Shown: positions 15,750 through 60,521 of the stretch, piece after piece
Layout of the letters: each line of letters begins with the position of its first letter
How positions within the stretch are numbered: position 1 is the stretch's first letter
Assembly: GCA_036172245.1 (NCBI GenBank)
Contig: JAYWIR010000075.1
Coordinates: forward strand, 124,001-188,000
DNA: 64,000 nucleotides
Reading direction: 5' to 3'
Source of the DNA: Raillietiella orientalis
Lineage: Eukaryota
Position numbers and translations under genes: made by a program
Notes under the pieces: model-generated
Database searches by the model: none
Told to the model about the DNA's origin: nothing
What the model saw: the letters and a program-made list of their open reading frames with translations, nothing else

Positions 15750-18700
15750 TTCTTATATCGATAGGAGCGACAACGTAGCACCATCGACGCTATTCGACAA
15801 GTCAACTCGCTGCAGCAGTCGAGATAGACTTGTCGGGAAACAACGGCGCACCCGTGCCGCCTGCATCCGTGAAGCAAGACTCCATTGGCGATTCCCAATT
15901 TCGGTTCCCTCTCAGAACAAACCGGACCGCAAACATTCAAAGAGGCGTGGAGCCTCGTTGAATGGAACGACGCAGAAGCGAACGAGGGTCCACGCAACGC
16001 TTACCACAGCAAGTAACGCTGCAGCAGCACGGCTGCAGATGCTTGCGCGCATCTTACACGCTCACTTTTCGCGCGAGCTCATTCCCCCAGAGCCCCCAGT
16101 TGCGGCTTCGTTCTCGACTCTTTTCCGAAGCGAAGAACGCAAAATTCGTGGATCGGACTCTTTGCTTCTTTTACCCCCTCATTCATTGCGCTCTCTTCTT
16201 CGTAACCTCTCACGCAGCACGCTTTGCCTCTCCTTTGAGGGCAGCTTCAGATTTCATTGGACATTGCTGACGGAAGTGGCATTGAGGAATGCCCGTAAAC
16301 AGACTGCTCAGGATATTCACAGAGCGAGGATCTTCGTTGTCGAGTATTTCAGGTTTGCACTTTCCCCTTCGCTGCTCCGGGTTGCTCAGCTTCCAGGAAC
16401 CAGAGAACGTGAGCGTCTCCCGATGTATCAAGGTGCTGACTGCATCCTAGGCGAGCCTTCCGTATTCCTCCTTATCGCATCAGCTACCCACTTGGAAGAC
16501 TCATTTAACACCGACGAATCTCCATTGTCTTTTCTCCAGGGAACTGGCTGATCGTGTGCTTTTGACTAGCTGGATGATAGTAAAAGAGGATGATGCCCCG
16601 TATTCTTGTTTGCAGTTACAGATGGGTGATTGACTTCCTGCTATGGCTCTCAAAGTCTGTCGAGTCCCTCCAACTCCAATTCGCCATCTTCTCTCCGTTA
16701 GAATGACTTTCCTTTTCTTTTCGCATCTCACAAGTTGCGGAGCCCGAGATCTGCGATGTTCTCGCACTCGTTTCCGATCGCTCCTGCCTCGTGAATCGTT
16801 CCATCTGCATTCGCTCACGACAAGGACCTCCCTTCATCTCCGCTACCCAGAGGACCACAGGAACGAGTCACAACTCCTAGTTAAGTGTTAGCAGACGGAC
16901 ATCCAAGACAACGAACGCAAGAGAAAGCGCAACCCACGAAACACGTAGAAGAGGTCCGACAACGGCTTCGCGTTGGGAGGTAGGCAGCCCGGTCGGCTGC
17001 TCGAGCATCCGTGTTTCCTGCACTCCACCCACCACTCGAAGAGCTTTGCTAACGATGAGAGAACCGCTGCTGCAGCGGCTGCTCGAAACGCACGAAACAC
17101 GAAACCAGGATGCGAGGGGATTCTTGCAGAGGCCGCGGTTCAATGCTGGAGGTGAGGACGGTATGAGTGATGAGGATAGCCAGGGAAATGGATGGAATCA
17201 GGCCGCTGCGCGGAGCGTGGGAGGCATGCAATGGGAACCCAGCCCGGCGCGACGTGAAAGACGCTCTTGCAAAATGCCCATTCCAGCCTTCCTGCAGCGC
17301 GGCCGCGAGCGACGGTAGGCTTCGAACCCCGAACCGGGACCTGAGCACCCAAGGGCACTCCAGGAGAAACCCCGTAGCCTCGGTGTATTTGCGATGTCTC
17401 CCAGCGGGCGGCAGTAGGACACCCGACCTTCCTCTCGTCGCCGTCTCCGGCGCCATCACCGCGTTCCTCTATTTTCCAGTACGAAATCCATCACCTAGTT
17501 TCCATCTTCGGTTTCACGTCACCTGGAAAGGGAGAAACGCCCCATCATATGTGCTCGTCCTGCTCGGAGGCCACTCCGAACAAGTGCAGATCTTCGGTTC
17601 GCTTCCCTATTAATACGTCGGGTTGCAGCTTGCCTCCCAGAGCAGCCGCAGGTGTTGCCAGCAGAGGTTCACCACCCAAGTCCTGCCGTTCCGAAGAGCA
17701 CGAGCGATGCATCCTTCCGACGAAAGAGTTGCCCTTCTGCTTCCGCAGGGCAAACTCTTCTCCGTGGCGGCACTTGTCGTCGTGCTCACGGTGAGTGCAA
17801 CCGTTTGCTCACCTGTCCCGTTTCCCTGGGGCCCGCGGCAGTTGACTTCTTCGGCTGCTAGATTCTCACTCCCAGGTGGACTCCCGCGAGCGGCGTCTGC
17901 GGGCGTGACGGACGACTGCTCTGGGGGCACCGCGTGGGTTCGGCCTGGAAGGATACTCTCCTTCACGAAAGGAAAATCAATCCTCTTTCGGTCCTGTTTT
18001 CTCGCGCGTGATGTGGATCATGCAACTCCGGGAAGATGATAGGCTTTCGCATCCTTGATCGACGGTCGGTCTTTCCGGCTTTCCTTCTGTACGCACGTCC
18101 CTGGGGAACTCCTGCAGCGCTCGATGAGACTCCGATGGGTCGCGGTGAAATAAACAGGAACTTTCTTTCAGATCCCGGCTCGTGGGTTCGTACCCTTTTC
18201 CCGAGAAGAAAGCGGACACTTCGAGAATATCTCCAGCATCCCCATCGTGAAGCCCACGCAGAGGTTTTCTGTCGAGCAGCGCTTCCTGATTCAATTCTCC
18301 CAAGGGTCGTGCGATCTGACCCAACCCCAAGGAAGCATAGTCAGCACCGTCACTTTTTCCAGTCCTGGAAATCCGGGCAATTTCCCGGCGAACTCGAGAT
18401 GCGTTCTGGGACTCCAGGTAGCTCGAGTCCAAGAGAGGCCGACCCTACGTCTGTTCCTCAGCCAAACAACATCGTGCAGTCCCCGGAAAACGTCATAGGA
18501 GTGTTTGATGCCCAGTTCGTTCTCGGAAACGGAGGCTCTCTCGTCGTCGAGGATACGCTACGCAGCATAACGTGAGATGATTTTCTGCTGCTAGTCAGCA
18601 TCGCCGTTCATCCTGACAGTTGGAGTGAACGGCCGCCCGCCCGCCACCCTGCTCCCACTCCCGCATTCTCGGACGCCGCTCTTCAAAGACCTGGTTGCGC

Positions 18701-20150
18701 CTCTCTTCGGTCGCAATTCCGGGAGACGTTCGGACCAACTGCATCCGCACCCGACTCGCGACCACTCTCCTCCTCACCCATCCGCGTCCACTATGCGTCA
18801 GCGTTCGCTTCGTCGCGCTGCGCTCGATGCGGACGGGGGGCGGCGTTGCGCGCATCTCGCGAGAAACCCCCCCGCCGAGGAGCCGTCAAACCGACCTGCA
18901 GCATAGCCGTCGCACCCGCCTCACCTTCCCCACCAGAAAAGTATCCGGTTCCTCTCGCTCATCTCGCCGGCCTGTCCCGGAAAGCGCGCGCGCTCCTCGG
19001 GACGCTATCCTCGATGCCTTCGGGAGGCAATTTCTTCTCTGCGGCGGCGCGGGATAGCTCGAAAAAGCCACCTGCCGCCTTCCCGCTTTTCCTCGCGGAA
19101 CCAACAGGCATGGGAGGACGCTCTGCGACCCCTGACCCCAGACAGCTCTGTTCATCGATGCACTCCCCCCCCCCTTCCGCTTTCCAGGATCACCAGGCAG
19201 GCGGATCTCGCTTCGTTTCCCAACCTCCTGCTGTTCCTGCCGGCTAAGATAACGTTCACAGGAGTGGTGGCATCGAGAGGATTTCGTCTCACTTTGACCA
19301 ACGCGAACAACGCATTCCAAGTACCTGCACAGCTGTGGACAACCAGTACAACCACGATGATGGCAACCTCTCCCGCTGTTCAACCTTTCCTCTCTTTGGT
19401 CATCAAGGTACGCAATCCTGGAATCGTGTCGAAGAGTGGTTCTCGAACGCGTCTGCTCGCAGTGTGACTCTTTTCATCCCCACCGGGGATCGTGGATGGC
19501 CTCTTCCGTCCGGTGATGAGCGACCGAATCGCCGGACTCCGCTTTCGTCAGGGGCTCCCCGTTGCGAGCGATTCCTCGATTCGCTCTTCTTGGGAAGGGA
19601 CCTGCGCCCTTGTGCGAGCTGCGCGCTTGCCTTTACTCCGGTTGAGCGGAACCGCCTCCCTGACCGCTTCTCGGAAAAGAGAGACTGCCAAAAGATGCGT
19701 CTCCACGTCTCCGGCGTTTTCTGTGTTTCGCGGGTCCCGCCGCGGCGCAAGCTCGACTTGGTTGACGGAGGGCGCGAAGCGTGCGCGCACGAACGGTCCG
19801 TTCCATCATCTCCCCTCCGACTCTTCCTCGACCGTGCTCGGCACTTCGATTCAAGGGAGTGCGGAAGGCAAAGGCAACCAGGAATGCCAGGAGGCGTCGT
19901 TCGCAGGGGTCAAGGATCCTTCGGAAACGAACAGCAGTTGCTCGAGGTTCGCATCCGTGCCCCGTTTCCACGTGACCGCTGCGAGTCCCGGGTGGCGCCT
20001 GAGCCTTTCGAAGGTTCAGCGAGACTTGCAGGGCTTGCGGGCGGAACACTCTTTTCCCGAAACGAAACGGAAGCTCCTTTTCCGGACGGGTGCCCCGTAG
20101 AGTGCGTGGTCTCCCGGCTGCCGTTTTCCCCGGTCTTTTTTGCACCAGCG
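15750..20150 (-). mobile_element. Heavily decayed Helitron-like Rep/PIF1-helicase coding region
   Basis: Eroded motifs in the order expected for RepHel, across frameshifts: APDE..FGRSSPDGRG (about 19560-19490), GDP..SMNR (about 19200-19140), ELGIKHSYDVFRGLHDVVWLRN (18453-18518, HUH-like), SCMIHIT (about 18020), FLLECPW (about 17360), QPTG (about 16995), EVLVVSEC (Walker-B-like, about 16820), DPRSVNIL, LGIANG (15881-15898). Recognised by eye only. Confidence 0.5.
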
Positions 20151-20479
20151 CTTCCTTCCCTCTGATCTCAGCCGGGATCAGGCCGGGAAGCGGTTCTTCT
20201 CACTGATACCCGAACCGCTCTTGCCACGTGCGGGAATCCAGCATCTGAGATGCTTCGAGCTTGTGGGGACTTCCCGCTACCGCCAATGCTGACTTCCTCT
20301 TCCTTTGCAGCCAGCTCCATGGTGCAGTTTCGTCTATGCTCAATTGAGCAGCCAGAACCTGTTGTCTGGAGAGCTGCTCACTTTCGGAACGAACGGGCAA
20401 AATCTCCCTCCGCAGATGCACACGACCTTTCCCGGCCCGTCCCCTGTCTCGAGTTTCCGCCTCCAATCGCAGCGAGGGA

Positions 20480-21960
20480 AAGCCATTGTCGTGTATTACT
20501 ATAGGAACGACAATCGGGGAGTTGCTGGGAGTTTCTCGACGTCCATGTTTTGCGTTTAGTGGTTCGACGGCGGTGGCGAGGCCTGCGACCGGGGAAAAGC
20601 TCCACCGATTCTGCTGGATTTTGAGGAGTAGCCACGGCGAAATAAATGCTTGCTGACTTGCTTTCTCTCGTTTGACTTCCGTACATTCCGAGCCAGAGGA
20701 ATTAGTGTCGCTCTGTTCCTCACTTCCTAATCCTCTCTACCGATTGCTGCAACTTCACTCGAGCGCCACTTTCTCCACTATCCCAATTGTCCATGCAAAG
20801 TGCAACCATGCTCGTGGTTGGTGTGCAGATCAGCACTTGTTCGAGGATGTGAGCGGCTTCTAGCCATCAACCAATCCCAATCCCCGTACATCCTTCCGAA
20901 ATGACTTCCGCGGGAGTTCGAAACCAGCAAACCCTTTTGTCGAGCATGCTCCTTTCCTGACGTCTTGCTGGATGTCAAGTTCGATTCAAAATACTTTGCC
21001 CGTGGGAGTGTGCAGAGCAGTGGTCAGCCAACCCGATTTGGCTTAGTCCTACTAGAGGATAGATGCCGAATTTCAAACTGCAGCAAACGGTGCGTTTTCT
21101 TTTTCCATCCCGATGGACGCTCCACTCTATGGCGACTCTGTGAGGTCTCCGCGTTCCTTTCCCACGTGATCGATCGCGTTCCTGCGTGGCGTGGACGTCT
21201 TGCTCCTTTAGCGAGAGGTAGCGAGACGTCCGGAGTGTGACCCTTTCACACTGAACTCATGCCTGTTTCCTCCTTCCGCAGGTCTGGTGGCATTTCTGCG
21301 GCTACTGCACTTCTCCCCTCTTAGGAGGTTCATCCTCCTCCTCCGATGGAGTTCGTCAGGAGGAAAGGGATGCGGGTTCCTACCCTGGGATTGCACAGGT
21401 GGGCGCTTCCTTCCCCTTGAAACGATCCCTCTAGGACTCCCGATTTGGTCCTTGCTTGCAGACTCCCTCACCGACTTTTCAAGATGGTCTCCAGGTCCGA
21501 CATGCGGCGTGGTGGTTTTTTGTGGACTACGCGAAACCAATACAGAAGTGCTGCCACTGCGCGCGCGCGTGCAGTGGAAGCACTCGAGGCATTTCGCCTC
21601 GATTGCTTCCAGTAGCATCACTCATGGTTCTGATCTCATTTTAGGGGAAAGGGGAGAGGGAATGTCACATCTAAGCAGTGGACATTCCCTATTGTTTTGC
21701 TCGAAATGTAACTGCAAGACAAAGCGGAGACTCTTCCGCAGCTTCGGATGCCGATCTCTCTTTTCATCAGTCCCGATGGAAAGTCCATAGCTGGAAGCAC
21801 GCGCTCTTCATCTTCCACTGCTTGGCTCTTCTTATTGCGGTGTTCGCGATGAAGAGAGCAATGCGGTTCCTGACCTCAGGGTTGTATCTGGGCGCCTTTT
21901 CATCCCCATTGAACAATCCGGCATAGATTTCTCGCTCTTGGTCCTTTCCTGCAGGCATGT
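20480..21960 (-). mobile_element. Decayed BEL/Pao LTR-retrotransposon pol (integrase region)
   Basis: Minus-strand motifs in order: FIAN..QW, KCLECFHC, GSHFGRMY (cf. APHFGGxYE), WRKWRSSE (cf. FWxRWxxEYL), VELFPGR (cf. IxELxPGxDG). Confidence 0.45.
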
Positions 21961-22029
21961 CACCGCCTTCGGCGCCTTCCGCTGTTGGTCGAGCGTTAGG
22001 CAGGCGAGGACGGGGAACAATTCCCTAAG

Positions 22030-22625
22030 ATAGGGGGTACTCCGAGCGGGGACCGCCATATGAATCCAGGAAGGACTCGGAGTCCGTTCCTCTCACGCCT
22101 GAGGCGAGATCCGAAAATTGAGATCGCTTCCACCCTGGTTGTCTCCGAAGGGAAGCCTGCGAAGGGAATCTCCTTCCTTATTCCCTCCTGAGGGGTCCTC
22201 TCCATTTTTTCCTTTTCGAAGGGAACCCGGAAAGGATCCGCTAGTAGAAATTTCTTCTCCGGAGAGAATCCGCAAGGGAACCGCTCCTGTTTACTCCTCT
22301 GAAGAGAACCCCGAAGGGACGCTTCCCGATTCCTCAGAGGAACGCTCCCGAAGGGAGCGGCTTGCTTATCTGCACTCTCTGGAGAGGTGGCGATACATCT
22401 ACTTCATCAGTATGACTCTGTGGGTCCCCCCGAAATGAGGGTCCTCTCCTTCACAACCGGAGGGGAGCTCCCACGCCGTGATTCCTGGAAGGACCCGGAG
22501 GTCGACTCCTATTTGTCCTGGCCCTCAAAGGGAACATCCAGTTTCAACAGCTACCATTGTCGCATCCGGATGAATGGAGGCCAATCAGTGTCATCTTGCG
22601 AGAGGAACTCGAACCCACGACGTAC
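22030..22625. repeat. Dispersed repeat with internal TCCGAAGGGAACCC-like units, copy B
   Basis: Homologous to copies A and C. Shares GGCCAATCAGTGTCATCTTGCG..ACTCGAA..CCACGA with 54468-54512. Confidence 0.75.
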
Positions 22626-22861
22626 TGCGTCGATTCAGTTCGGAGTATTGGAACGCACGATGCATGGTGTCACGGGGTGACACCACCGTAACCACACAGC
22701 CTCCGACGCGGGCCGTGGGTTTCCCGGCTCCTCAGCCAGCGCAAGTCTCGCCTGATGCATTTCTTATCCAGTGCTTCGTTTCTGATCCACTCAGGATGCC
22801 TCCGTGGTAGAACATGAAGAGACTTTCCTCACCAGCTTCCGCTCTTTCGAATCCTGGCTCG

Positions 22862-23830
22862 TTTTCCACCCGGTTCTGCCGAGGCATTTACTATTAAACA
22901 AAATAATAATAAAAGTCCACTAAAACATTCAATTGTTGTAAAACACTTGGTTTCACCACGTTCTCGGGAGTTGCTTTGACCGGCATGCAGAACCGGCGAG
23001 GACCGTTTCCTCGGCAACGGGAAAGGGAAAACCGGGAAAAAAGGGAAACAAACAAAAAGAGAAAAACGGGAGAAAAAGTTTTACCGGAAAGTAGGAGGGG
23101 GAGGAGAAGGGTCCGGGAATGGGATCACACTTCGCTAAGAGACGTCCTCAGCACCCTGTTCAGGATGTTGGGAAGTTCTATCCTTATCTTGCCAAGTGGG
23201 GACGGCCATCTCGAGGCGGTCTTCAAGACGATTGTTGCGCAATGCATTGCGTCTCTTCCATTCATGCCTCTTCTTCTGGCCTTCCCCGCCACGATCCCGC
23301 AAAGACAGCAGAGTGCTGCACGGTACGCGGCTGGAGGCTGCGCGGCACGCGCGCGCGAAGAGGCGTCCGCAAGTCTCCCTGCGACCTCCAACCGGGACTC
23401 CTAGGGTCTTCGAGAAGCGATCCCAAAGGGGACGGAGGGCGGCGCAGTCTAGCAGAAGGCCTCCTTTTCGCCACATCTGTCGCACTGAGCGTCCATGCTC
23501 CTCCGTATTTAATGATGAAGGCGTGCTTTGCACAGGATTCCCCCATGCACCACCAGCAACGCCAAATTTTGTCACTTGAGAGGGAGGATGCCGATCACAG
23601 CTCAACCTTAGGCAGGCGGACACGTGCCACGAGCCTCCTCTTCCTCCATGCACCCTGCAATGCCCGTCTCGGAAGTTCAGAGTGCCCTCGTACGACTCAT
23701 TGGTGCGAAGCATCCCGACCTCCCGGCGGCAATGGAAGTGCCGCGTAGAATCGCCAGGAGTTGATCCCGAATTCTCGGCATCACTCTCCTCGCGTGTTGC
23801 TCCGTTGCTTGCTTGAAGCATCCTCTATCG
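22862..23830 (-). mobile_element. 5'-truncated, decayed L1/Tx1-type LINE 3' end
   Basis: LLLDCAALRPLWDRFSKTLGVP and ILNRVLR on the minus strand, T-rich UTR, terminal motif at 22867-22892. Confidence 0.75.
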
Positions 23831-24369
23831 GTGGACTACGAAGACCTCTCTTTACGATCCGCACCTCTTGGAGCGCAAGCCCTAAGAATGGCAGTCCCTT
23901 ATATTAGGCATCTCCCGTTTCCTCGGTAACACCGTAGTTTCCTCGTTTTGCAGGTGAGACATCCTTGCATCCTTTGGTCACATGGAAACAGCCGCATCTC
24001 AAGGAAGTTATCTTTCTTTTGTAGACTGCTTTGTGTGCGTAATCACTAGCTGTGTCCTTCGACGGATCCGTTGTCCCTCCAGAGATAAGCAAGCGAGGCA
24101 TCACCAGAGTCAGTTCCTCTTCTTAGAGTTCCCATCTATAAGAGACTACCTTCATCTTGATGGTGTACAGCGGCTCTTGTTGGCTAAGCCACGTATTTAT
24201 CAACTGACCGGTCTTCGGCAGTGAAGATGACATCAATACCCCTGAATGGCTAAGCAGTCTCCAGCACGCGCTGTGGCACCCTGGGGATTTTGTGATTTCT
24301 AGGACTTTCTAGGAGCATCCAAGTGATGAATGGAATGTTCACTGAGCTTCCATCATCAGGCGATAAGGC

Positions 24370-33141: not shown

Positions 33142-34816
33142 ATGGCTGGCAGAAAATACCGAAGAGATCAAACAGAAGTTAGTTGCTGTTTGAAATATCT
33201 CATTTTTGGATTCAACGTGATATTTTGGGTGAGTTCATTAATCAAGTTACAAACTGTAATATATCCTTCATGAAATATACAACTTGAGTTATAAAAAACA
33301 AGTAATTACTTGACTGTATTTCACAGCTTCTTGGGTTAGGGATCCTAGCTATAGGTGTTTGGGCATGGACTGAGAAAGATACTTTCAATAATCTGAGCCG
33401 CCTAACAAATATTTATTTAGATCCAGCTTTTATCTTCATCATTGCAGGTATATTTTCCTATAACTTTTTGTTGGTACGTTTCTCATTGCAACATATAGGA
33501 AGCATAACTTTCATCATTGGTTTTACTGGATGTGTGGGAGCTCTACGTGAAAATACTTGTTTGTTGGCATTGGTAAGACTGATGTTTAGATGTAAAATGA
33601 AATATTAATGTCATTCCAGTATTCCATAATTTTGGCAATTTTATTACTGCTAGAAATGACTGCAGGAATCTTGGGATTTATTTTCAAGGATTGGGTATAA
33701 TCTCTCACTTATTACAAATGTTTATGAGTCCAAAATTATCTCTGTTGTAATTTCTTGTCTCAAAATTTCATTCTTGTCTTTTGTGGAAGTGTCATTTCAT
33801 GCTGACCATGTAACATATACTTTTCTGTTTGGAAAATGGAGCGTTTTTGAACATGTGTAGAATCTGTTGCTTTTAGATTAAATTGAAGGCAACTGGAGGA
33901 TTTCAAACTTTTATTGTACATTATCGAGATGATCCTGATCAACAGAATCTTATTGACTGGATACAGGAGGATTGGGTAAAGTAACTTCTTATTGGTCATG
34001 AAGTATATTTCTTAAATAGCTGCAGTGTTGTGGTATTGAAGGTCCTAAAGACTGGGATAAAAATATTTATTTTAATTGCTCTTCAGTTGAAGTGGGAAGT
34101 CGTGAAGCATGTGGTGTGCCTTTTTCCTGTTGTAGGCCCAAAAAAAACGTAATGTTTCCAATATAGCTGATAAATTCAATCTCATGTATTTTAGGAGATC
34201 ATCAAAAATAAGCAATGTGGCTATGATGTGCGCAAGCCTGATTATGTGAGTATGAGTACCTAGTGAAGAGGGTAGCTTTGGCTTGCAAACACTGCTGCTT
34301 TTACTAACTTTTCTTTTCTGGCACTTAGCTTGGGGATCGAAGTGTCCTTTTGTTTGAAAAGGGTTGTCTAAGGGCAGGCGAGCAGTGGGTAGAATCCAAT
34401 TTAGTGCCAGTGGTGGCAGGCCTGGTGGGGATAGCTGTCCTTCAGGTATTTTTTCTTGTATTGAAGGTGATGGTGCTTGGCACTCTGCATCTTTGGTGGG
34501 TCGGAAATGACAAATATAAATGTTTTTACGTGATCATCTTGCAGAAATATGATGCAGCAAAAATAATTTTTGATAAAGGCTGCCTGCAAGCTGGTGAAGA
34601 ATGGCTTGAACAGAATTTACTCCTGGTGGGTGGGGTAGTTATATTTGTGGCCTTTCTACAGGTGAGTCGATTGAGAGCAGAGTGTCATGCCATCAGTTAC
34701 ATTATTTGCCAAGTTTGCATTATATTATCTAATCCGTTACACAGATTCTCGGCATCTGTTTTGCACAAAATCTCCGAGCAGACATATTTGCCCAGAAAGC
34801 CAAATGGCACTGCTAA
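33142..34816 (+). CDS. Tsp26A: TspanC8 tetraspanin (Tsp26A / TSPAN5/17-like), 274 aa, spliced
   Basis: Exons 33142-33228, 33327-33447, 33499-33572, 33620-33694, 33877-33975, 34020-34148, 34195-34245, [34329-34445 or 34545-34661], 34745-34816. All introns are GT-AG and in phase. Protein [29 protein letters not shown]...[13 protein letters not shown]...[12 protein letters not shown]...[59 protein letters not shown], with 8 Cys in the large loop. The symbol is the closest recognised Drosophila gene; orthology was not tested. Confidence 0.95.
34329..34445 (+). CDS. Tetraspanin alternative exon 8a (117 nt)
   Basis: TTACTAAC branch point and TTAG acceptor, CAG|GTATTT donor. Encodes [39 protein letters not shown]. 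Confidence 0.88.
34468..34695 (+). promoter_or_regulatory. Complementary intronic elements flanking exon 8b (candidate selector/docking RNA duplex)
   Basis: 34468-34488 TGATGGTGCTTGGCACTCTGC pairs with 34677-34695 GCAGAGTGTCATGCCATCA: 19 bp (3 G-U) with one 2-nt bulge, extendable by 4 bp past a bulged A. Confidence 0.7.
34545..34661 (+). CDS. Tetraspanin alternative exon 8b (117 nt)
   Basis: TTGCAG acceptor, CAG|GTGAGT donor. Encodes [39 protein letters not shown], 17/39 identical to 8a, same length and phase. Confidence 0.9.
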
Positions 34817-34943
34817 ATGGTATACAACATTAGACATCCAGTATGATATGTGCTTATGTATGCAGATGTCTCATTATGAAATGGAATCTCACTTGATTGT
34901 TTAAATACTCAATTAAGTCATATTTTGATTATGAAAATAAGTA

Positions 34944-49559: not shown

Positions 49560-51500
49560 AATCTAGATGGACTATATTACGAATGGGCGCAGTCAAACCA
49601 GTTGACTTTCGAGCATGAACTCGCAAGTTTAGGATGAATGTAAAGAACCGAGAGATGTCATAGTCATCGTGGGGGACTTTAATGCCGATCTAGAAAGGCA
49701 CCAGCATTGAGACGTTTAAGGAGATAATGGTTTCGGGATGAAGAACTCGATCTCATCCGGACGGTTGCCACACACACTCCGATAAACTACATCCTCTACC
49801 CAGAGAACGTCAGCAATCGTTTTCAGAGACTTAGGGAATTGCCCACCTCTCTCTCGGACCACCTTTTGCCAAGGTTTCGGGTGAAAGCCAATAATCCGAA
49901 GAAGGTACACTTAGTAGTCAAGGCGGCTCTCATCTGCATGTCCTCCTGGTGCAAGAGATGCCCGAAATACCGGAACATCATGAAGACCATCCTGGACACA
50001 ACCGCCAACAGCAGCTTCCAAGAGTGGGATCGACTCAAAAATGCTGTCCATCTCTTCTATGATATGTTGCTCGGAGACAGGGAGCTAAAACAGCGAGCGT
50101 ACTGGGAAATGAGCGAACAGCATCTCCCCTACTCTGTTTACTGGCAGCAGTACCAGAGACGATACCTGGACCACAGCGTCAAGAAGAACGTCGACATGCT
50201 GGGAAAGATGACATTTTCCAGCTTCCACGAACATTTATCTCACCCACTACCTACATCGCGACTATCGGGCCTGGGAACAAGTGCTGTAGTCGTTTCACTA
50301 CTATGACACCGAATTATTCCGCAGGAAACCTCTCGACGAGGAGGGTAGAAGAGACGGGTCTTCCTATGTGTCGTCAAACGACTCGACTCTCTTCAACCAC
50401 AAGCCTTGGACCAAGGATTCACGGATCAGGAGATCAGGACGGCTTTCCTGGAGCTCAGCAAGCATCTGGCGGCGGGTACTGATAGCGCGCGTCCGTTACC
50501 CACCACCAGCTGCACCTGCCAGCCAACCCGCGTCTGTTCCTCCAGTTGATGACCCGAGCGCAAGGAAGAAGGAGGAAGGCTGCCTGACCTCTTCCTATAG
50601 GGATAGGATGAGACTTCTCCCAGGTGATGTGATTTGAAGCCAGCCACCCATCTCCGTCCTCAATTCCGATACCAAGTGGGTAGCCACCGGCTAAAAAGAT
50701 GCGTCGGATCGGTGATTTCTCCCAGGCAACCGCGTGCTATCCCTGAAAGACGTAATCGCGGGAGCTTTAAAGGTCTCCTAAATCCTCCTAGAATACAACC
50801 TCATAGGAAATGAACTGATTCTGGATCTCAACGGGCTTAATTAGGCCATCGAGTCCGCTGTCCACACTATTGTTGAAAAAATGGGCTACCTGAGAAAAAA
50901 TAGGCTTCCACTGGAAACTCCTGGCATGCGCGGCGGTCACTCTGGAAGGAGCGCGATTCCACCTTGCCATCGACGGGGAGGGCGATCTCCGCTAACCGAT
51001 GGATGGACAGAGGAATTCGCTAAGGAGATGCTTTATGCTCTATACTCTTCGTCCTCCACACGGACGCGACAGCATTCTGTGTTACCAAAAAGAGCAACAA
51101 AAGAGTCTCAGTCTGGATAGGGAGATCATCACCAACCTGGCTCATGATCCACTATTTGTCATGGCTGACTAGAAAGATCAGAAGGCGCTTTTATCGATCG
51201 CGGAAACCGTGGAATACGGATTCAAGATTAACGCGGCCAGGTCCAAGCTTCTCGCTGCCATCGGAATTTCTGGTACCGCTATCCTGCAGTCTCACGGATT
51301 CGGGATCGTGGATGACCCACAGTACTTGAATGTATCCACATAGGAGATGAAAGGGAGTAACCAGCATCCCAACGGAAGGAGACGATAAAGATCAGGCACG
51401 AAGCGATGCAGTGCAGAGGGGAAAACTTCTCCGGTGCGTCTTCGCTACCGACTTCTTGTTGGCGTGGTCTTCTAGCACATTCCAGAGAAATGGTCAAGCA
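49560..51500 (+). mobile_element. Decayed L1/Tx1-type LINE ORF2 (endonuclease to RT)
   Basis: VIVGDFNA (49663-49686), LSDH (about 49855), FQEWDRLK, PISVLNSDTK (50647-50676). Many stops and frameshifts. Confidence 0.7.
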
Positions 51501-52244
51501 TCTGGAAGACTCCTGAAGAGCACTAAGGTGTACAGGAGGGGAAGTCCCGAGAGAAACTGAAGCTTTTGCTTGTCTGGAGATGAGGCAGGGGCAAAAGCGT
51601 GTGGGAAATCGCCACCGAGCTCCAGGATTTGCGGCACGTCAATGCCTGGGACGAATGACCGTGCGTGTTGCACCGAACCTACGCCAGACGGCTCAACGGA
51701 ACCGACTGCCTGATGTCAGCTCTGTCCGGGACACGAGGGCGGAAGATCGACCCGATCTGGCCGAAGAAACAAAACCTCGTCAAAAGCGTTAATATGAAGA
51801 ATGCACTGAAGAGCAAGGTGCTCTGGATCAAGGGGCCGGGAGTGGTTATTCCCGCTTTTCGTAAGCGTTCCATGGGCCACCGAGAGATGGCTCCAGAGGA
51901 GACCACAACTGACCATCAACGATCGAGATCTATTCCCCAGCAGTGGGAATGTCTCCCCGAGGAGCGAGTGTTCCAGCACGAACTCCAGATGCAAGGGTGG
52001 GCGACCTGCAAGTTTCGCGAACTCTGGCAGGAGCAAAGCTCGGAGGAAACTAAGGTGAACCTCCGAGCTCTGGCAGTGCAGTTCACATTAAAGACCACTG
52101 CGCACGAAACAGTCGATGTGGACACAGCTCAGACAACGTGACCGTTCTATAGATAGACGACCTGGTTCCAGTGACCCAAGACAACCTCCTGACGTTCTAT
52201 CACAGAGGGGCCCTGTGCGACTCTCGACTGCCCCACGCTGGATG

Positions 52245-53520
52245 GTTTATCACTAGGTTACGCCGGGAAGTTTATTATAAAAAATGAATGCACATTTGTA
52301 GGGCCATCGGCGCTTCATTGTCCGAAAATGCTCGGAACCTGCCGAGTAACCGGCATGCAGGACGTCGAGGTTCACCTCGGCAGCGGAGGGGGAGGGGGCA
52401 AACAAAAATGAAAATAAAACAAATATATATATACAAAAAATTGAGAGGGTTAGGGAAGGGGTCACCGGAATCCGAGGGGCGTCCTTTGCATCCTTTTCAG
52501 GATGCCGGCCAGTTTCCTCTCAGTACGTCCCAGGTGAGGCCATCTTGCTGCCGTCCTCATGAAGCGCAGGGCAAAGCAGATGTTCAGCAGCGTTCCTGTA
52601 GTAACGTCCTCTTCTCGCGTAGCTCTAAGACACCACAACCCCACATAGGCAGCAGCAAAGAGCTGCTGGGTATCCGGCAAGCGAAAGAGCATCGCTCACG
52701 AGGAGGCGCTTTATCACGCCCCTGGGATTTGTCCGTCGGTGCACCAAAGGACGTTGCGTAACGAAACCACAGGGACCAGAGGGCAACACAGACTACGAGC
52801 AGGTGAGGAAGGGATTCCCATTCCCCGCACCTGCAACAGTTGGTGTCCACAGTCCCCCAGTGAGAGCGGCGGGCATTGCACGGGAAACCCCAGTGCAATA
52901 GTAGAAGTGCCGACTCCTTCCACTTCAGAAGAAGGACCCAATTATTTTTGAACGCTGGGGGCCACTCGAGGCCTTCCTGTAGAATTCCCAGCAGCTCACC
53001 TTAGTGAAACAGTCTTTTCGTTTAGGAAATTGAAGTTGCAGCCTTCTTGAGCTGGCTCGTGGTTCAACCACCTAATTCCTTCGCTCTTCCACCGATCTCA
53101 CATCGGACCTCCCATTTGGCCAGCTGATCACTGTCCAAGTGCTCCCTGAGAGAGGACAGTGCTGCGGCTTGGGAGGTTCTTTGAGACCACTTACACGTGA
53201 TGGGCTGCACAATGACGTCCTTCAGCGAGTTGTAAAACGAGTGCAACAGCCGCTGGCGCATCTCCGGGCTCGCTTCGTTGTTTTGGGCTTATGTGCGAAC
53301 GCTTTCCTGCAACCAGGCATTACCGTTCGCGGGCCGGCAGAAGATCCAGTTGTTGGTCCTGGTCAGCTTGGCCACTTGCCGGAGCTTCAGTCCGCAGAGC
53401 GACACATTGATATGGAGGAAGGTTCCATGAGAACAACCTTTGAGCACTGTCCCCAGTCAATCTTGAGTCCTCGAAGAAATCCTGGTGCAGAGTTCCAGCG
53501 AACTCTAATCTCAAAAACGC
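52245..53520 (-). mobile_element. 5'-truncated, decayed L1/Tx1-type LINE 3' end
   Basis: LAKWEV, HWGFPCNARRSHWGTVDTNCCRCGEWESLPHLLVVC, GILKRMQR, UTR and terminal motif at 52251-52276. Confidence 0.85.
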
Positions 53521-53929
53521 TACTCTCAGAGGTTTAATAGAATTACTGCAGCCAGGTCAGAAGTCAGCAAAACGGTTATGCTGCTGGGGAGCAATTCAAT
53601 CGGACTTACATGAAACAAAAGTGCTGTCGGTCCAGATGGGAGTCATTCCTCAAGCCAGTGACATCCTTATGGTGGCGTGAAAATGTGAACTAGGCTAAGA
53701 ACGTAATATTTGAAGGAATATCGACAAACCATGCACGCACAGGATAGTTGATCAGCACAATCCGCACAATCCGTCTTTACATGCGATTAATACAACTACC
53801 TCGACGGCTACGCACCTCAGTGTAGTCACCATAGTTGCACTCTTCACCACCTCTGTCCGTCATCATATTTTTTCGAAGTTCCCCTCATGAAGTCGTCAAC
53901 CCTTCTTTCAATGATCCACCTTCAAGCTA

Positions 53930-54515
53930 GGAGTAACCCCGGGTGGGGACCATCCTATGATTCCATGTAGGGCTCCGCAGAAAGGACTCCGTTCCCACAT
54001 ACTTGGGTGGGAACCCGGAAGGGAACATCTTCCTTATTCTTTCCGAATGGACCCCTAGAGCGTAGGTACCCTTCGTTTCTTTTCTGAAGGGAACCAGGAA
54101 ACCCTGGAATTTCTTCTCCGAAGGGAACCCGAAAGGGAGCCGTTCCTTGTTACTCCTCTAAAGAGAACCCCGAAGGGACGCTTCCAAATTTTCTCCGAAA
54201 GGTCTCTCCCGAAGAAGGCAGCACGCTTCTCGCACTCTGGAGAGGTATTAATCCACCAGCTCCGTGGTACACATGGAATGGGTCCCCCACGAAGGGAGAC
54301 GACTCCATTTGCACAACCGGGGCAATCCAAAATGAACCGGACTACTTGATTCCTGGAAAGACCCCGAAGGGTCAACTTCCAATGCCACCCACTCGTCGGG
54401 TGCATCCGGTTTCCAGCTTCCACCAGTACTGCACTCCCCGGCGTGACCAGTGCTGCACTCGAACATGGGCCAACCAGCGTCGTCTTGCGGGAAGGACTCG
54501 AAATCCACGATGCAT
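53930..54515. repeat. Dispersed repeat with internal TCCGAAGGGAACCC-like units, copy C
   Basis: About five 35-42 nt units. Homologous to copies A and B. Confidence 0.75.
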
Positions 54516-54534
54516 CCATATCTCGGGCGTCGAT

Positions 54535-56715
54535 CCTTTATTTTCACTCGGTCACGCTGTAGCGTTTATTGTAAAAAAAATATTTACAGAAAAAAACAGT
54601 CATATACAAGATGAAAAATGTCTTTCTTCGTAGTGACTTCACATCACCACTACTAAGGGAGATGCCTCGGAGGCGCTGCTTCTCGTTAGCAGCTCCCCTG
54701 CACTCTCCGCACTGCCCCAAAACATTCCCTCCTCATAAGCAATGAGGTCCGCACAGGAGGAGTGAGATAAGAAGTAGACAAAAACACACAAAAAAGCACA
54801 AAATTTCAGCTTCAAAAAATGCTAGGGGGGAAGGGGAGGGAGCACATATTTCTTCCTGGCATCCTCAGCATCCTCTGGAAGATGTTGGCAACTTTTTCCT
54901 TTTGTTAGCAGAGATGCGGCCATCTTATCTCTTTCCTCATCAAGCAGCAGACGATTGAGATGGCCTCATCATTCGGCTGACCCTTTCGGAGCGGCTTCTC
55001 GCCGCTGCGATCTCATGAAGGCAGCACGGAGCTGCAAAGGAAGATGGAGGCGACATCCAGTGGCGCGCGAAGGAGCACCGCAAAACCTCTCTGCCGTTGA
55101 CCATCAGGAGTAGGAGGACCACAGCGAAGCGTTCCCAGGCGCTCAGGAGGGCAACAACACAATCCAACAACAAGTGCAAGAAGGTTCCTCTTTCCCTGAA
55201 CCTGGCACAGTGTGGGACGGCACTCACTCCTGTCCAGGGGGATTCGTGCGTTGCATGGGATTGCCCAGTGCAACAACTGCGATGCCGAGCCCTGCCACTT
55301 CAGGGGAGGCGTGGAGCTGTCCACAAACACTGAAGATATTTCTGCATCTTCAGGAGGAATGTCTAGGAGTTCTATCCAGCGACGAATTCCTTTAAGGAGG
55401 GCGGAGGGAGTGCATACGTCAGCCAGTTCACATGCCGTCCAGCGTTCCAGCTGCTTCTTTTTCCCCACGATCTCGCAGGATGCTACCCATCTCGCAAGAC
55501 ATCGATATTTCCACTTTGTTATTTGATGTCTAGCGTGGCCTCAAGTGGAGTGTTCCACACCCAAGTGATCTTCCTTGGGAAGTCCATGATTTCCCGCAAC
55601 GGGCAGCGAGCGTAGTTCGAGGATCTCAGACATCGCGACGGGTCCGAGTTCGTGCCGTTTCTTTTCGCCCACATCTGACCTGTTTCCTGTTTTCAGGCAC
55701 TACAGTTGACGAAGTGGCAGAAACTCATGTGTTCTGGATCAAGGCAGTCATTTGCTGGAGTTGGTACCCACATCATGGCAACTGTCGGTGGCCATTCAGG
55801 AGGAACATACCGAGTTTCCTCGGCTCCGGTTGCTCTCTTGGCCAAGAGTCTGGCTTGGACACCCAATAAGTGGTCCAAAACTTCGTCGACAGGACTGATC
55901 TACACTGGAGCTGCCGCTTCATTCTCTCCAACATCAGGATGCGAGTCCAGCGTTCCGACGCTGAGCGCGCACTAGTCCTTCAAGAGGACCCGAGACCTCT
56001 GCGTTCCCCAGAATACTTTTCGCAAAAGTCCTCAGTCCACTTTTTCACATATCCAGGAGGGGGAAAACAAAAAGCAGGGGTCGGAGGAAGGGAGTCGGAA
56101 CAAGTCCCACTGGACAGCCAGTTCCGGCAAGAGAAACTTGCTATTCAGGAACGGGCTGAGCGCCGATTTTTGGAGGCAACCGGACCAGGTTTCTGCTGCA
56201 CAGAAGTCTTCTAACGGGAATCCCAGATACTTAACGCGCCTGACTTGTGGAGATCCCCAAACGGATACAGTCTGGTTGCACTGCCCAGGCCGCATCAACG
56301 GGAAGCACAGTCGACTTCGTTCTGTTTCTACGCTCCTCGGCGGATCAGCTCGAGGAATTCCTCTAGCGATTCTGCCAAAACTGACATGGGTAACAGGAGC
56401 AGAAGATCGTCGGCATAGGCCAACACGACAGGCTTGCTGGGGCACGGACTGGGAAGGGCAGCAAGAGTTGTCCCATATTCTCTCAGAAGGAGAACTGAAC
56501 GCTGAAGAACAACGGACTGTCTTCTTGCCGAATACCGCGCAGCATCGGTACGCCGCACACGTGTCAGCCGCTGAAAAAAATGTTGATCATCACGTCGAAC
56601 CAGCAGGAGCGCAGGTAGGCCAGGAGGACATCCAGGAATCCCATGCGTTCCAAAAGTTCCCAAAGGAGCTCCTGGTCGACACAGTCGAGTGCTTCTTGCT
56701 TGACCAGCACCTGTG
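54535..56715 (-). mobile_element. Decayed L1/Tx1-type LINE (RT to 3' end)
   Basis: ALDCVDQELLWELLERMG, VLAYADDLLL (about 56400-56425), VKYLGFPL, WAIPCNAR, HLLLDC, terminal motif at 54545-54570. Confidence 0.85.
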
Positions 56716-56739
56716 CCCTTGCGTGGGCAGGCGTGGCAA

Positions 56740-59713
56740 GTTACCGTCCGAGCTGTACGACCATCGCCCGATCGTGCAAGAGATTCATCCGCGAGACACG
56801 GCCCACCCTTCGTCAGCGTGGCGTCTCCCAGGGGACTGGCTGAAGCTCCCGGACGCGGTGGAACATCTCCGCGCGTTCATATGGAGCATCAGAATGCGGA
56901 CACTTCAGGACTGGGACCGCTTTAAGAGGTCGGTCCAGGAGTTCTGCGGCCAGTTCCCTCTGCACCGCCTACCTGCGGGATTTGTGGACGGGGTCCGTAA
57001 CAAAAGGTCTTATCCACAGGCCCGACGTTACGCAAGGACCCCCGACACCCGCAGGCTAGCGGAATACAAAGCGGAAGCCGAGAGGCAAGCCTGGCAGTCC
57101 GGATCGGTCAGTTTGTTGGAGGATCAGGGCCGGGAGCACTCGGTACCCGCTCAGATCCGCGGCCTGCTGCGGCGTTTTTATCCCTCCCTGTACGCAAGAA
57201 CGCCTCCCGAGCGGGATGTCTCACGACTCCTGCTCCCGGAAGGCGTTCCAGCGATCAGAGAGGAGGAGAAAAAGTCCTCAACGAGCCTTTCACGATGGGC
57301 GAGATCATCTCGGCCATCGGAAAGCTCAAGAGGCGCAAGGCTCCAGGGGAGGACGGCCTGCCCGCAGAGTTTTATCAAACTTTGCGGCAGATCTTACCCC
57401 CCTGGTACATCAACTCACCTTGCTGACACGCGAGACAGGCAGATACGTTCCCGCCTCGTTTCGCTCGGCAAAGGTGCGGCTCCTCCCAAAAGGAGATCTT
57501 AGGAGCATGAACAACTGGCGTCCCATCACAATGCGGACGCCAAGTTGATAGCTAAGGTTTGGGCAGAGCGCCTGGGAAGGGTTGCAAACGCCTTCGTCAG
57601 CCCGGAACACACAAAGCATTCGACTGCATCGACCAGAAACTCCTGTTGGAGCTTCTGGAACGCTTGGGCTTCCCAGCCTCATGATTGGCCTATCTGCGCT
57701 CCAGCTGGCGCGACGCGCTCATCAATGTTTCTTTCAGCGGGTAGACCGTTCACGGCGTGCCGGTGCGGCGTGAGATATGGCAAGGAGACAGCCTGAGCCC
57801 CTTGCTCTTCAGCACTTACTTCGAGTTGGTACTGAGAGCGTACAGGTAGACTCTGGCGCACCTGCCTCACGACTACGCCTGTACGCCGGCGGTTTCAGCG
57901 TACGCGGACGACCTTCTGCTGCTGCTCCCTATGTCCATCCCGGCTTCGGCAGTCGAGGAGTTCTTCGACCTGCTGCATCGGGGAACCGGACTTACGGTGA
58001 ACAGGGCGAAGTCGTCCGTGATGCCAGTTGGTGCGGCGTGGGCAGGGCAGCAGGACTGGGTCTGTTTGGGGATCCCCACGGTGAGGTACTTCAAGTACCT
58101 TGGTGTGCCGTTGGGGGACTACTCCCCTGCGGAAGTGTAGTCCCGCTGCTTCCAGAAAGTAGAGACGGCGATCGTCCCGTTCCGAGGCGGCAGGTTTTTC
58201 CTGCCTGAACGGGCCGCGGTTTGGAACACGTTCGCGGCTTCTCTCCTCCGTTTCCTGATTTTTGTTTGCCCCCCCACAGAGAGGATTAAAAAGCGGACGA
58301 AGGACCTCCTTCGTATTGCCCTTTGGGGCAACGGGAGGGCCCGAGTCCGCTTGAAGGACTTGTGCGCTCCGCGTCGGGACGGTGGTCTCGGCCTCCTGAC
58401 ATTGGAGCGGCTGGAGCTTCAGCTCCAGTTCCGGATGTTGGCCGTCGTGCCGGAGTTCTGGTGCACCTGCTGGTGCGTCCCTGCACGTCTCCTCGTCAAG
58501 AAAGCCACCGGGAAGACGGGACTCACGTCCTTTCTTTCATTCCATCGCTCCCGCATCAACCGATGTGGGCTCCAGCTGCGGAAGGTGGCTGCCTTGGTTC
58601 GGAAAAATCAAGGATGGATCACCTGTCGCCCCGCGAACGGTAGTGCCTGGTTACAGGACACCGTTCGCACGTGGGCACAGTGCGGCATGCAACGCGCCCA
58701 ACAGGAACGAAGGTTCCTGTTTGGGTGCTACAGAAGTTGCACGCTCCGAGAGATCCTGGAGGATCCGAAGAAGCGAGCGTGGTCAGGAAGAACCCCCCTC
58801 GCTGCTGCGCTGGCCTCCCTAGTGGAACATCAGGACAGCGATGTTGTGGCGAAGTGGGAGGTTACGATAAAAATCTCCGGGAAGGAGAACATAGCAGAGT
58901 GGAAGACGGGTCAGCTGATTGACGCTGCCACCCCGAGTACGCCTCCCCATGGACTTCTGCGCTGGGGCGCGCTGCTCGATGTTGCCATTGAACGTCTGAA
59001 GTAGCCCCCGGTGCTCATGAATACCTCCACCCTTCCCTTAAAATGGCAAGAGTAGGCTCTACTGTTGCAGCACTGGGGACTCCCCTGCAACGCCCGCCGA
59101 CAGCACTGGACCTGGGGAGCGGTGGACCCCAATTGCGTTAGGTGTGGGGAACGGGAGTCCCTCCCCCACCTGCTTGTGGATTGTGTTGCCCTTCGGCCCC
59201 TTTGGTTCCTCTTTGCCGCGGCCATCGAAATCCCCTGCGGCAACTCCAGGGACGCTTTGAAAGCCCTCTTCGTTGCCGACGCCCTTCGGCCTGCGGCCTG
59301 GTTAGCAGCCCTGTGCTGCCTTCGCGGGATCGTCGTCGCTTGGAGCAAGGCTACGGGAGGACCTCGCGATAAGGGTGCCATCCAGCACGCCGCCGAATTT
59401 TTGAGGAGGGCATCGCAGTGGCCCCACCTGGATCCTGGAATTCAGAAAAAGCTTGTCGGCATCCTGCGAAGGATGCAACGGCCCCAGCAGCAACAGTGAT
59501 CCCTTCCCTCACCCTCCCAGCTTTTCTTTTCTATTTGTTTAGTTTTTTTGTTTATCTCCCTTCCTTCTGCTGCTGTGGTGGACCGTACCGGTCTGCGAAC
59601 TGGTGACCCGGTAGGCTGTGTTTCTTCGTGAGTGACTGGAGCACTGGTCCAGCCATAGCACGTCTTTGTTAAAGTTTGTTTGAAATAAACGCCCCGAAGA
59701 AACCGGGTGAAAA
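56740..59713 (+). mobile_element. Most complete L1/Tx1-type LINE copy (end of endonuclease, RT, zinc finger, 3' UTR), frameshifted
   Basis: YDHRPI, WDRFK, KAPGEDGLPAEFY, LLPKGDLRSMNNWRPIT, QGDSLSPLLF, YADD (57901), VNRAKS, FKYLGVPL, DGGLGL, CVRCGERESLPHLLVDC, AATAAA at 59684 followed by the hairpin. Confidence 0.92.
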
Positions 59714-60521
59714 TCGAATGCCTTTTGCAAACCGACTGCGATAGCAAGGGCTCCCGACGCCTTCGACCCAACGTGGCCTCTCGATCCCTGACCATCCCGG
59801 AATTCAAAATCCCTTTGGCCAGACGACTCAACCCTTTGTTGCAACTGAAGCCAGGAGCTGCGTCGATCCTTTCCGAATATTTGAACCCGTGACGCTTGGT
59901 GACACGCATGGAGACCGTAGATGCACGACCTCCAAAGTGGGCAGGCCTTTTCCTTGTAGTTCTCTAATGGAACTTCCATTTTTTACCCCTCCCCTCTCAG
60001 CTCCGGGTTTCTTGGAAGCATTCCGTTTTTGCGCAGTCGACTGACCAGGAATGCTGGATCCTTTTTCCTTCTCCTTCCTGTGGTGGCTCTGTGGGATCGG
60101 GGTGTACCTCCATAAACTTGTTTTCGAAGCAGTCATTGTTTTCGTTCACACAGAATCTTCCAGCAGGTTTGTTCGACTTCCACTGCCGACTTCTCTCTGC
60201 TTCTTTCTGGGTGCACTAACCCCCCTAGACGATTACCAAGGGTTTCTGCTTTTTCCGAGATTTTTCCTTCTTAGGTAATGCTTTGCAGCTTCTCCTGAGG
60301 ATCACACCTCAGCTACTGCTCTCCTTTTGACCAACTCCGGCTGCCCCTTTTTTCCGAAACGACAGATTCCTGCTCTTTTTCACTTTGTTTTTTTCCCTAG
60401 AAATCAGAGCAAGAGGGTAAGCAGTCTGTTCCCGGCAAAACTTTCCACAAACGTTAGCTTCTATTCTAGAATTCCATGCGTTGAAGAATGTACCAAGAAT
60501 TCTTCGCATGATGTACTTCTG

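Follow-up and report, generated by a model that had tools for sequence, protein, structure and literature searches.

ADAM10 has more than 100 substrates, and how it is directed to them is an open question. Mammals have six TspanC8 tetraspanins as its partners, which differ most at the surface holding the ADAM10 catalytic domain, and arthropods have three TspanC8 genes. A locus of Raillietiella orientalis raises the question of whether a single arthropod gene can offer more than one version of that surface by alternative splicing. It lies in a window of 64,000 nt (the whole stretch analysed, positions 124,001 to 188,000 of contig JAYWIR010000075.1), where a ten-exon gene on the + strand at 33142-34816 encodes a 274-aa TspanC8 tetraspanin.

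This gene is probably an orthologue of Drosophila Tsp26A in which two tandem homologous exons, here 8a and 8b, are normally spliced one at a time between exons 7 and 9, yielding two isoforms. Joining either exon between exon 7 and exon 9 would give a 274-aa protein, and inclusion of both a protein of 313 aa. The variable segment would run from the strand leading to the eighth cysteine of the large extracellular loop, through the last loop helix, to the outer two thirds of the fourth transmembrane helix (TM4).

Twin exons and their conservation

Exons 8a (34329..34445, +) and 8b (34545..34661, +) are each 117 nt long and in phase 0, with 39 codons and no stop, and lie 99 nt apart. Both are preceded by AG; GTATTT follows 8a and GTGAGT follows 8b, and all four junctions (exon 7 to 8a or 8b, and either of these to exon 9) are in frame. 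Translation and the AG/GT borders agree with the initial annotation, made from the sequence before this analysis, which had described two phase-0 exons of this length with splice sites and no stop. Exon 8a, of the first-position or 'A' type, encodes the last loop cysteine, the last loop helix and outer TM4; exon 8b, of the second-position or 'B' type (...NLL), encodes the equivalent protein segment. In the spliced product the alternative exon spans residues 214-252, including cysteine 225, the eighth of the loop, and predicted TM4 spans 232-261, which bears out the claim that both exons encode the last loop cysteine, the loop helix and most of TM4.

By direct count the two peptides are identical at 17/39 positions and differ at 22/39, the identity originally given, and the motif quoted with it (F-x-KGCL-x-AGE-x-W-x-E-x-NL) is present in both exons. 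BLASTP finds 17/37 identities and 28/37 positives, with an E value of 2e-12 that rules out chance resemblance. At the DNA level 58/117 nucleotides are identical, spread unevenly over codon positions 1, 2 and 3 (22/39, 27/39 and 9/39; chi-square p 1.4e-4). Since synonymous sites are saturated and the protein has been kept, the duplication is old and both copies are under coding constraint.

Each exon also scores as its own type when compared with relatives: the profile score is +14.7 for 8a (first-position type) and -17.6 for 8b (second-position type), and 8b shares 76% identity with the second exon of Daphnia. Counting from the G of the Gly-Cys (GC) motif, the positions shared by both types are the GC pair itself, A at +4, E at +6, W at +8, E at +10 and the final Q. 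Type-specific positions (first/second type) are -6 (R/K), -1 (R/K), +3 (R/Q) and +16 (V/I), the last of which falls in the TM4 run assigned by hydropathy. The types diverge most in the ten residues ahead of the cysteine and in the membrane segment, where the first type has a VPVAG run with a proline; in the second type, F at +25 is nearly invariant.

A different explanation of the pair is that one copy is a dead relic that R. orientalis never splices. Two features of 8a fit this rival. Where relatives have the consensus RGCLRAGEEW...NLVPVAG, the window copy deviates at several conserved positions, with K in place of R ahead of GC and Q replacing the second E, and its terminal branch is longer than that of 8b (0.49 vs 0.25). 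However, both exons are open, exactly 117 nt long and bordered by AG and GT, their differences avoid codon positions 1 and 2, and each carries the profile score of its own type. Compared with relatives, 8a has a proportion of non-synonymous differences (pN) of 0.20-0.32 and 8b one of 0.155-0.27, the synonymous proportion (pS) being saturated for both. Codon-position bias, pN/pS and type-profile scores rule out a decayed copy, and a relic that is never spliced has only the slimmest of chances.

The reading of two maintained, homologous exons can be followed into relatives. A HMMER scan with the 111-aa read-through of both exons as query found 223 proteins at E<=1e-3, many of them exon-sized open reading frames (ORFs) of one type only and several with both types in tandem; the names of ten relatives point to insects of six orders and one scorpion. 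With the 39-aa exon peptide plus one codon as query, only unnamed exon read-through ORFs matched, and nothing scored in a search for longer proteins with the 111-aa read-through. A search with one relative, P0021, returned 757 proteins at E<=1e-10, and the protein counts below are taken from the best 120 of these. Arthropod proteins make up the best 120, under the names tetraspanin-5, tetraspanin-17 and tetraspanin 26A, the last in bees, weevils and a planthopper; a further millipede protein, found by cluster look-up, has the first-type exon only.

The window product shares 84% of its residues with Daphnia-type proteins and 78-81% with those of insects. Its identity to RefSeq-named tetraspanin 26A, -5 and -17 proteins (78-84%) extends over the full length, with an identical C-terminal exon, which makes the gene a predicted orthologue of Drosophila Tsp26A in a comparison made with proteins of these three names.

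Both modules, A then B, are present in 44 of the best 120 proteins and one module in 76 under a strict motif; a looser motif gives 46/120 and 74/120. By score, the 74 single-module proteins divide into 54 of the second type and 20 of the first. Proteins with both modules come, among others, from insects (mayflies to flies), Daphnia, Artemia, two ostracods, an isopod, a spider and a tick. A metagenome scan gave 80 loci, among them nine genomic loci with both exons and AG/GT borders, 117+117 nt in eight and 117+114 nt in one, a set that includes near-duplicates (L017/L022 and L031/L032). In 20 metagenome loci of another animal lineage, a single module precedes the last exon.

In a tree built from 76 exon peptides, two label changes separate first- from second-position exons, where shuffled labels needed about 25 on average and 0/500 shuffles were as low; the split has a Shimodaira-Hasegawa-like approximate likelihood ratio (SH-aLRT) of 84. 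Exon 8a falls among the first-position and 8b among the second-position exons of relatives, and a single row is out of place, a mayfly's second exon on a long branch. As a point against the main reading, approximately unbiased (AU) tests over 38 columns leave unrejected both a separate chelicerate exon clade (p 0.73) and a grouping of the window's own 8a and 8b (p 0.28). Because these tests are indecisive, the duplication is treated as common to Pancrustacea, and the chelicerate pair, which may have arisen separately, is kept apart.

In seven loci, pN for both exons is 0.04-0.32, against saturated pS of 0.56-1.08. Both 8a and 8b are under purifying selection. Together with the presence of the pair across arthropods, this upholds the earlier view of an old duplication under selection, and the per-exon selection check proposed with it, run here as pN/pS, found pN low in both exons.

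Not all relatives keep the two types cleanly apart. The second exons of P0182 (Cloeon), P0197 (Parasteatoda) and P0207 (Ornithodoros) resemble the first type (GCLRAGE or GCLHAAE), which suggests gene conversion or independent re-duplication.

Exon use in relatives and in the fly record

Exon use is read here from the sequences of relatives. Among the best 120 proteins, 22 are assembly-derived (Logan, ENA, JGI), and a full-length spliced coding sequence on a contig of 1-4 kb must derive from RNA. All 22 have a single module (2 A, 20 B), against 44/98 annotation-only proteins with both modules (Fisher p 1.4e-5). In the metagenome scan, 17/80 loci are cDNA-like, with a module directly before the last exon, and all are single-module; typed by eye on the type-specific residues, they comprise 10 B, 5 A and 2 unclear cases. 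A single exon is thus present in 39/39 assembly-derived or cDNA-like sequences. From these relatives we infer that R. orientalis uses both of its exons, normally one per transcript.

Several points weigh against this reading, and some favour a rival explanation in which both exons are commonly spliced in together, giving the 313-aa protein with an internal repeat, nine loop cysteines and an additional half-helix. One spliced, cDNA-like JGI contig (P0027) reads A-B-exon 9, and about 25 RefSeq-named isoform models join both exons, contributing to the 44-46 two-module proteins. Because 117 is a multiple of three, double inclusion stays in frame, so nonsense-mediated decay would be unable to police exclusivity, and the 99-nt intron between 8a and 8b is long enough to be spliced here. 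Moreover, assembly contigs show dominant forms and lose rare variants, and the protein counts cover the best 120 of 757 matches.

However, two modules occur in 0/22 assembly-derived proteins and 0/17 cDNA-like contigs, and many of the models with two modules come from submitter or ab initio prediction. With both exons joined, the first copy gives a 20-residue hydrophobic run (232-251) followed by a polar stretch; this short run, together with the odd number of loop cysteines, makes a functional double form seem unlikely. At one relative's locus (L075:404-438), the intron between the twin exons is 35 nt, probably below a spliceable length; steric hindrance, possible at this locus only, would then enforce exclusive use in that species. 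Common double inclusion is very improbable. The mutually exclusive use proposed in the initial annotation stands as the usual pattern in relatives, given the single exon in 39/39 sequences, and falls as an absolute rule, given P0027 and the RefSeq models.

The pair is real, ancient and conserved, and it has already been catalogued in flies and many other arthropods, so it is not new. In table S2 of Torres-Mendez et al. 2022 (PMC8797185), D. melanogaster Tsp26A has a 111-nt exon at chr2L:6001159-6001269, labelled 'eMICdep' and 'pan-neuronal', and a 117-nt exon at chr2L:6001477-6001593, labelled 'ASE'; the two have a common upstream donor (6001083) and downstream acceptor (6001669). Table S4 of Martinez-Gomez et al. 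2022 (PMC9741552), on tandem duplicated exon substitutions, also counts Tsp26A among its 154 fly genes; the fly list lacks Tsp86D and Tsp3A, and the human list holds 0 TSPAN genes. These two tables overturn the initial suggestion that the pair was undescribed. The match to fly Tsp26A rests on exon lengths, gene names and other drosophilids, such as a D. mojavensis A-only isoform whose A segment is 37 aa (111 nt) and of the RGCLRAGE type. Since the first-position fly exon is pan-neuronal and dependent on the Srrm234 eMIC, a neuronal form and a general form would be the likely logic of the pair.

Discussion of the pair in print is harder to find. Literature on TspanC8, Tsp86D or Tsp26A together with splicing, judged by title, holds no discussion of it, and Hatje & Kollmar 2013 may mention it. 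A TspanC8 review (PMC8268256) lacks the word 'isoform' and speaks of splicing only for truncated tetraspanins, and Dornier 2012 contains neither 'isoform' nor 'splic'.

The fly table also bears on another rival, in which 8a and 8b are independent cassette exons whose inclusion (A, B, both or neither) follows no linked choice. All combinations would stay in frame, the table gives each exon as a separate event (PMC8797185), and RefSeq-named isoforms of 256-257 aa, known by length only, exist in tephritid flies. Nevertheless, skipping both exons would cost the protein its last loop cysteine and the greater part of TM4, and zero or two modules occur in 0/39 assembly-derived or cDNA-like sequences. 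Two intron elements in the window that appear to compete for one downstream-intron partner, described below, argue weakly in the same direction. Unlinked use is very improbable, and a choice between 8a and 8b remains the preferred reading.

The introns of the region have features of their own. Between constant exons they measure 44-51 nt in 4/6 cases, and those around 8a and 8b measure 83, 99 and 83 nt; the longer introns flanking the alternative exons leave space for regulatory elements. The 99-nt intron (34446-34544) is free of stops when read in the frame of the exons, so a single ORF extends over 34329-34901, and its retention would keep the frame. ORFs reading through both exons are seen in relatives too (P0016, P0018, P0023), and the open intron is probably a chance outcome in short introns. 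In several RNA-derived contigs from relatives (P0159, P0163, P0287, P0296-P0300, P0324), the transcript is spliced up to exon 7 and then runs into the intron before the first alternative exon, which could reflect slow splicing at a regulated site or an assembly break at the branch point.

The TspanC8 product and its proposed surface swap

The gene model was built from stop-to-stop ORFs, tblastn of full-length relatives and splice dinucleotides, and all exons lie on the + strand. Exon 1 (33142..33228), placed by the ORF list, tblastn with relatives P0252 and P0253 and a GT donor at 33229, encodes the start codon, the N-terminal tail and the start of TM1. The next four exons were placed by tblastn and splice sites: exon 2 (33327..33447) encodes the end of TM1, the small loop and the start of TM2 and ends in phase 1; exon 3 (33499..33572) encodes TM2 and the inner loop; exon 4 (33620..33694) encodes TM3, with a weak Pfam match (E 0.0022); and exon 5 (33877..33975) encodes the initial helices of the large extracellular loop. 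Exon 6 (34020..34148), supported by the ORF list, tblastn and splice sites, carries the CCG motif and loop cysteines 1-6. Exon 7 (34195..34245), of 51 nt, carries loop cysteine seven (QCGY). After the alternative exons, exon 9 (34745..34816), located by tblastn, encodes inner TM4, the C-terminal tail and the stop codon, and is identical to relatives at 23/23 positions across the aligned stretch.

The product is a TspanC8 tetraspanin, as shown by eight loop cysteines, four hydrophobic segments and the Pfam Tetraspanin family. The large-loop cysteines stand at 155, 156, 172, 183, 189, 190, 203 and 225 in both isoforms, and a hydropathy scan of the spliced product gives hydrophobic segments at 13-45, 57-85, 85-118 and 232-261. 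Pfam PF00335 exceeds its 32.1-bit cut-off in two exon read-throughs (35.9 and 38.2 bits). It matches the exon 2 read-through (33306-33605) with E 8.1e-9 and the 34329-34661 read-through in two stretches with E 1.6e-9, the best of which (residues 5-48) corresponds to profile positions 179-221 of 225; the exon 6 match (E 8e-7, 29.4 bits) is under the cut-off. The TspanC8 assignment of the initial annotation is upheld by the cysteines, the hydrophobic segments and the 78-84% identity to arthropod tetraspanin-5/-17/26A proteins. In a structure search that took relative P0253 (84% identical to the window product) as query in place of the window protein, the closest PDB relative was Tspan15 (8esv_B, E 1.2e-40), followed by Tspan7, CD53, CD9 and CD81.

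Some transcripts of one beetle-like species have an FLQ insertion between exons 6 and 7 (P0163 and P0210 vs P0159), which may come from a microexon of 9 nt or from an alternative acceptor; the 46-nt intron at this place in the window is too small for it. Elsewhere in the window, GC-rich blocks at 16000-24000 and 50000-60000 have a GC content of 0.52-0.60, against 0.30-0.38 near the gene, and hold numerous long ORFs that overlap on both strands, among them 55976-57502 (508 aa). Pfam found no family in 15 long ORFs across the window, mostly from these blocks, and Rfam gave 0 matches over the whole 64 kb.

What the swap may change is suggested by the human Tspan15-ADAM10 complex. According to a preprint by Lipper et al. 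(10.1101/2022.10.22.513345), R207, Q211 and R217 of Tspan15 lie at site B, which touches the catalytic domain of ADAM10, and the site-B stretch differs among the six TspanC8 proteins. The same text reports that replacing Tspan15 residues 206-230 with Tspan5 or Tspan14 sequence impairs the cutting of normal N-cadherin, and that the chimeras prefer a substrate four residues longer. In the alignment to 8esv_B, Tspan15 206-230 corresponds to the final two residues of exon 7 and the first 24 of the alternative exon, and exon 7's last residue aligns to R207. The chain numbering is offset by 12, since the R, Q and R of site B are found at chain positions 219, 223 and 229, and the alignment, anchored by cysteines on both sides and with one gap, should be good to about one residue.

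As aligned, the exon swap would exchange almost the whole stretch that the laboratory chimeras exchanged, plus outer TM4. By homology to Tspan15, the extracellular part of the cassette would be site B, the face that sets the height of the ADAM10 catalytic domain over the membrane. The two isoforms may therefore set Kuzbanian/ADAM10 differently, and would be expected to differ in cleavage position, in substrate choice or, via the membrane helix, in trafficking; Notch, cadherins and APP-like proteins are possible substrates. The initial annotation had proposed two ADAM10-regulator isoforms from one gene, and the alignment of the swapped stretch with site B lends that idea support while leaving it conditional. 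Two considerations count against a functional difference: it depends on an alignment to a human paralogue with an uncertainty of +/-1 residue, and the Kuz-Tsp26A interaction is stated as not tested in Dornier 2012. As far as the literature searched extends, the link between site B and the exon swap is not in print.

A broader proposal, to which we give tentative credence, is that the pair is a natural site-B cassette, providing neuronal and general ADAM10 scissors that differ in cut height or substrates, with intron competition taking part in the choice. In this second, bolder layer, two intron elements competing for one downstream-intron partner would choose the exon. The candidate docking element (34672..34695, +) lies in the intron after 8b and could pair with both candidate selectors, one in the intron between 8a and 8b (34468..34493, +; helices of 7, 11 and 4 bp) and one in the intron before 8a (34279..34303, +; helices of 4, 2, 5 and 9 bp), the latter containing UGCUGC; all three are speculative. 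If 34468-34493 paired with 34672-34695, 8b would be looped out and the donor of 8a placed beside the exon 9 acceptor.

Numbering the introns before, between and after the twin exons I1 to I3, dinucleotide shuffles reached the duplex energy in 25/500 cases for I2-I3 and 13/500 for I1-I3. At seven loci from relatives, the I2-I3 energy was matched by 2, 7, 14, 23, 29, 49 and 75 of 100 shuffles; the combined I2-I3 p over 8 loci is 0.016, driven by the window, L045 and L075. Conserved competing RNA pairing was not found, the signal being inconsistent across the seven loci, and the fold of 34236-34754 is not unusual against shuffles (z -0.51). Intron pairing in the window is a speculative lead.

UGC is a motif of SRRM/eMIC-dependent exons. 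In the window, UGCUGC occurs about 30 nt before 8a (34289-34298) and UGCAG at the 8b acceptor (34539-34544). The upstream UGCUGC element could be a protein-binding site instead of a pairing element.

Comparison with known systems

The result is a modest one: a conserved splicing event, correctly spotted, that is annotated in other arthropods and little studied. Its interest lies in the way one arthropod TspanC8 gene would swap, by splicing, the surface holding the ADAM10 catalytic domain together with the top of TM4, with one version pan-neuronal in the fly. A single small exon could serve as a genetic handle by which one 'scissor' is lost and the gene is kept, making the molecular-ruler model testable in vivo, and the same handle would reach neuron-specific Notch/Kuzbanian processing.

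Among the nearest known systems is fly Tsp26A (FBgn0031760), where, as in the window gene, a tandem pair of alternative exons with shared flanking junctions precedes the last exon. The exons measure 111 + 117 nt in the fly and 117 + 117 nt in the window, and the fly inter-exon intron, calculated from the coordinates, is 207 nt, whereas the window introns are 83, 99 and 83 nt. Tissue use and eMIC dependence are known from fly Tsp26A only.

More generally, Dscam1, 14-3-3zeta, Mhc and ion channels have mutually exclusive exons that arose by tandem duplication, a class for which Pillmann, Hatje and Kollmar have reportedly set out criteria. The window exons resemble such exons in being adjacent, of equal length, in the same phase, homologous and ancient, and in belonging to a membrane protein; PMC9741552 describes the tandem-exon class as enriched in plasma-membrane proteins. 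They differ in that their length is a multiple of three, so that double inclusion causes no frameshift. Unlike systems with docking and selector sequences, the Tsp26A-type loci tested have no demonstrable conserved RNA structure.

Other tetraspanin genes also vary their products. The C. elegans TSP-14 gene has functionally different isoforms. 'Non-conventional tetraspanins' arise by splicing (Hochheimer 2019, as cited in PMC8268256). In those systems the N-terminus is changed or transmembrane helices are lost, whereas the window gene swaps one homologous segment for another and keeps four helices.

Finally, human Tspan15 in complex with ADAM10 (8esv) belongs to the same fold family, and the stretch swapped in the laboratory (206-230) corresponds to the extracellular part of the arthropod cassette; in vertebrates it differs from paralogue to paralogue and adjusts where the cut falls. 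In contrast to the Tspan15 chimera, the arthropod cassette also replaces outer TM4. Vertebrates vary the site-B surface via six genes, whereas the arthropod Tsp26A-type gene would vary it by splicing.

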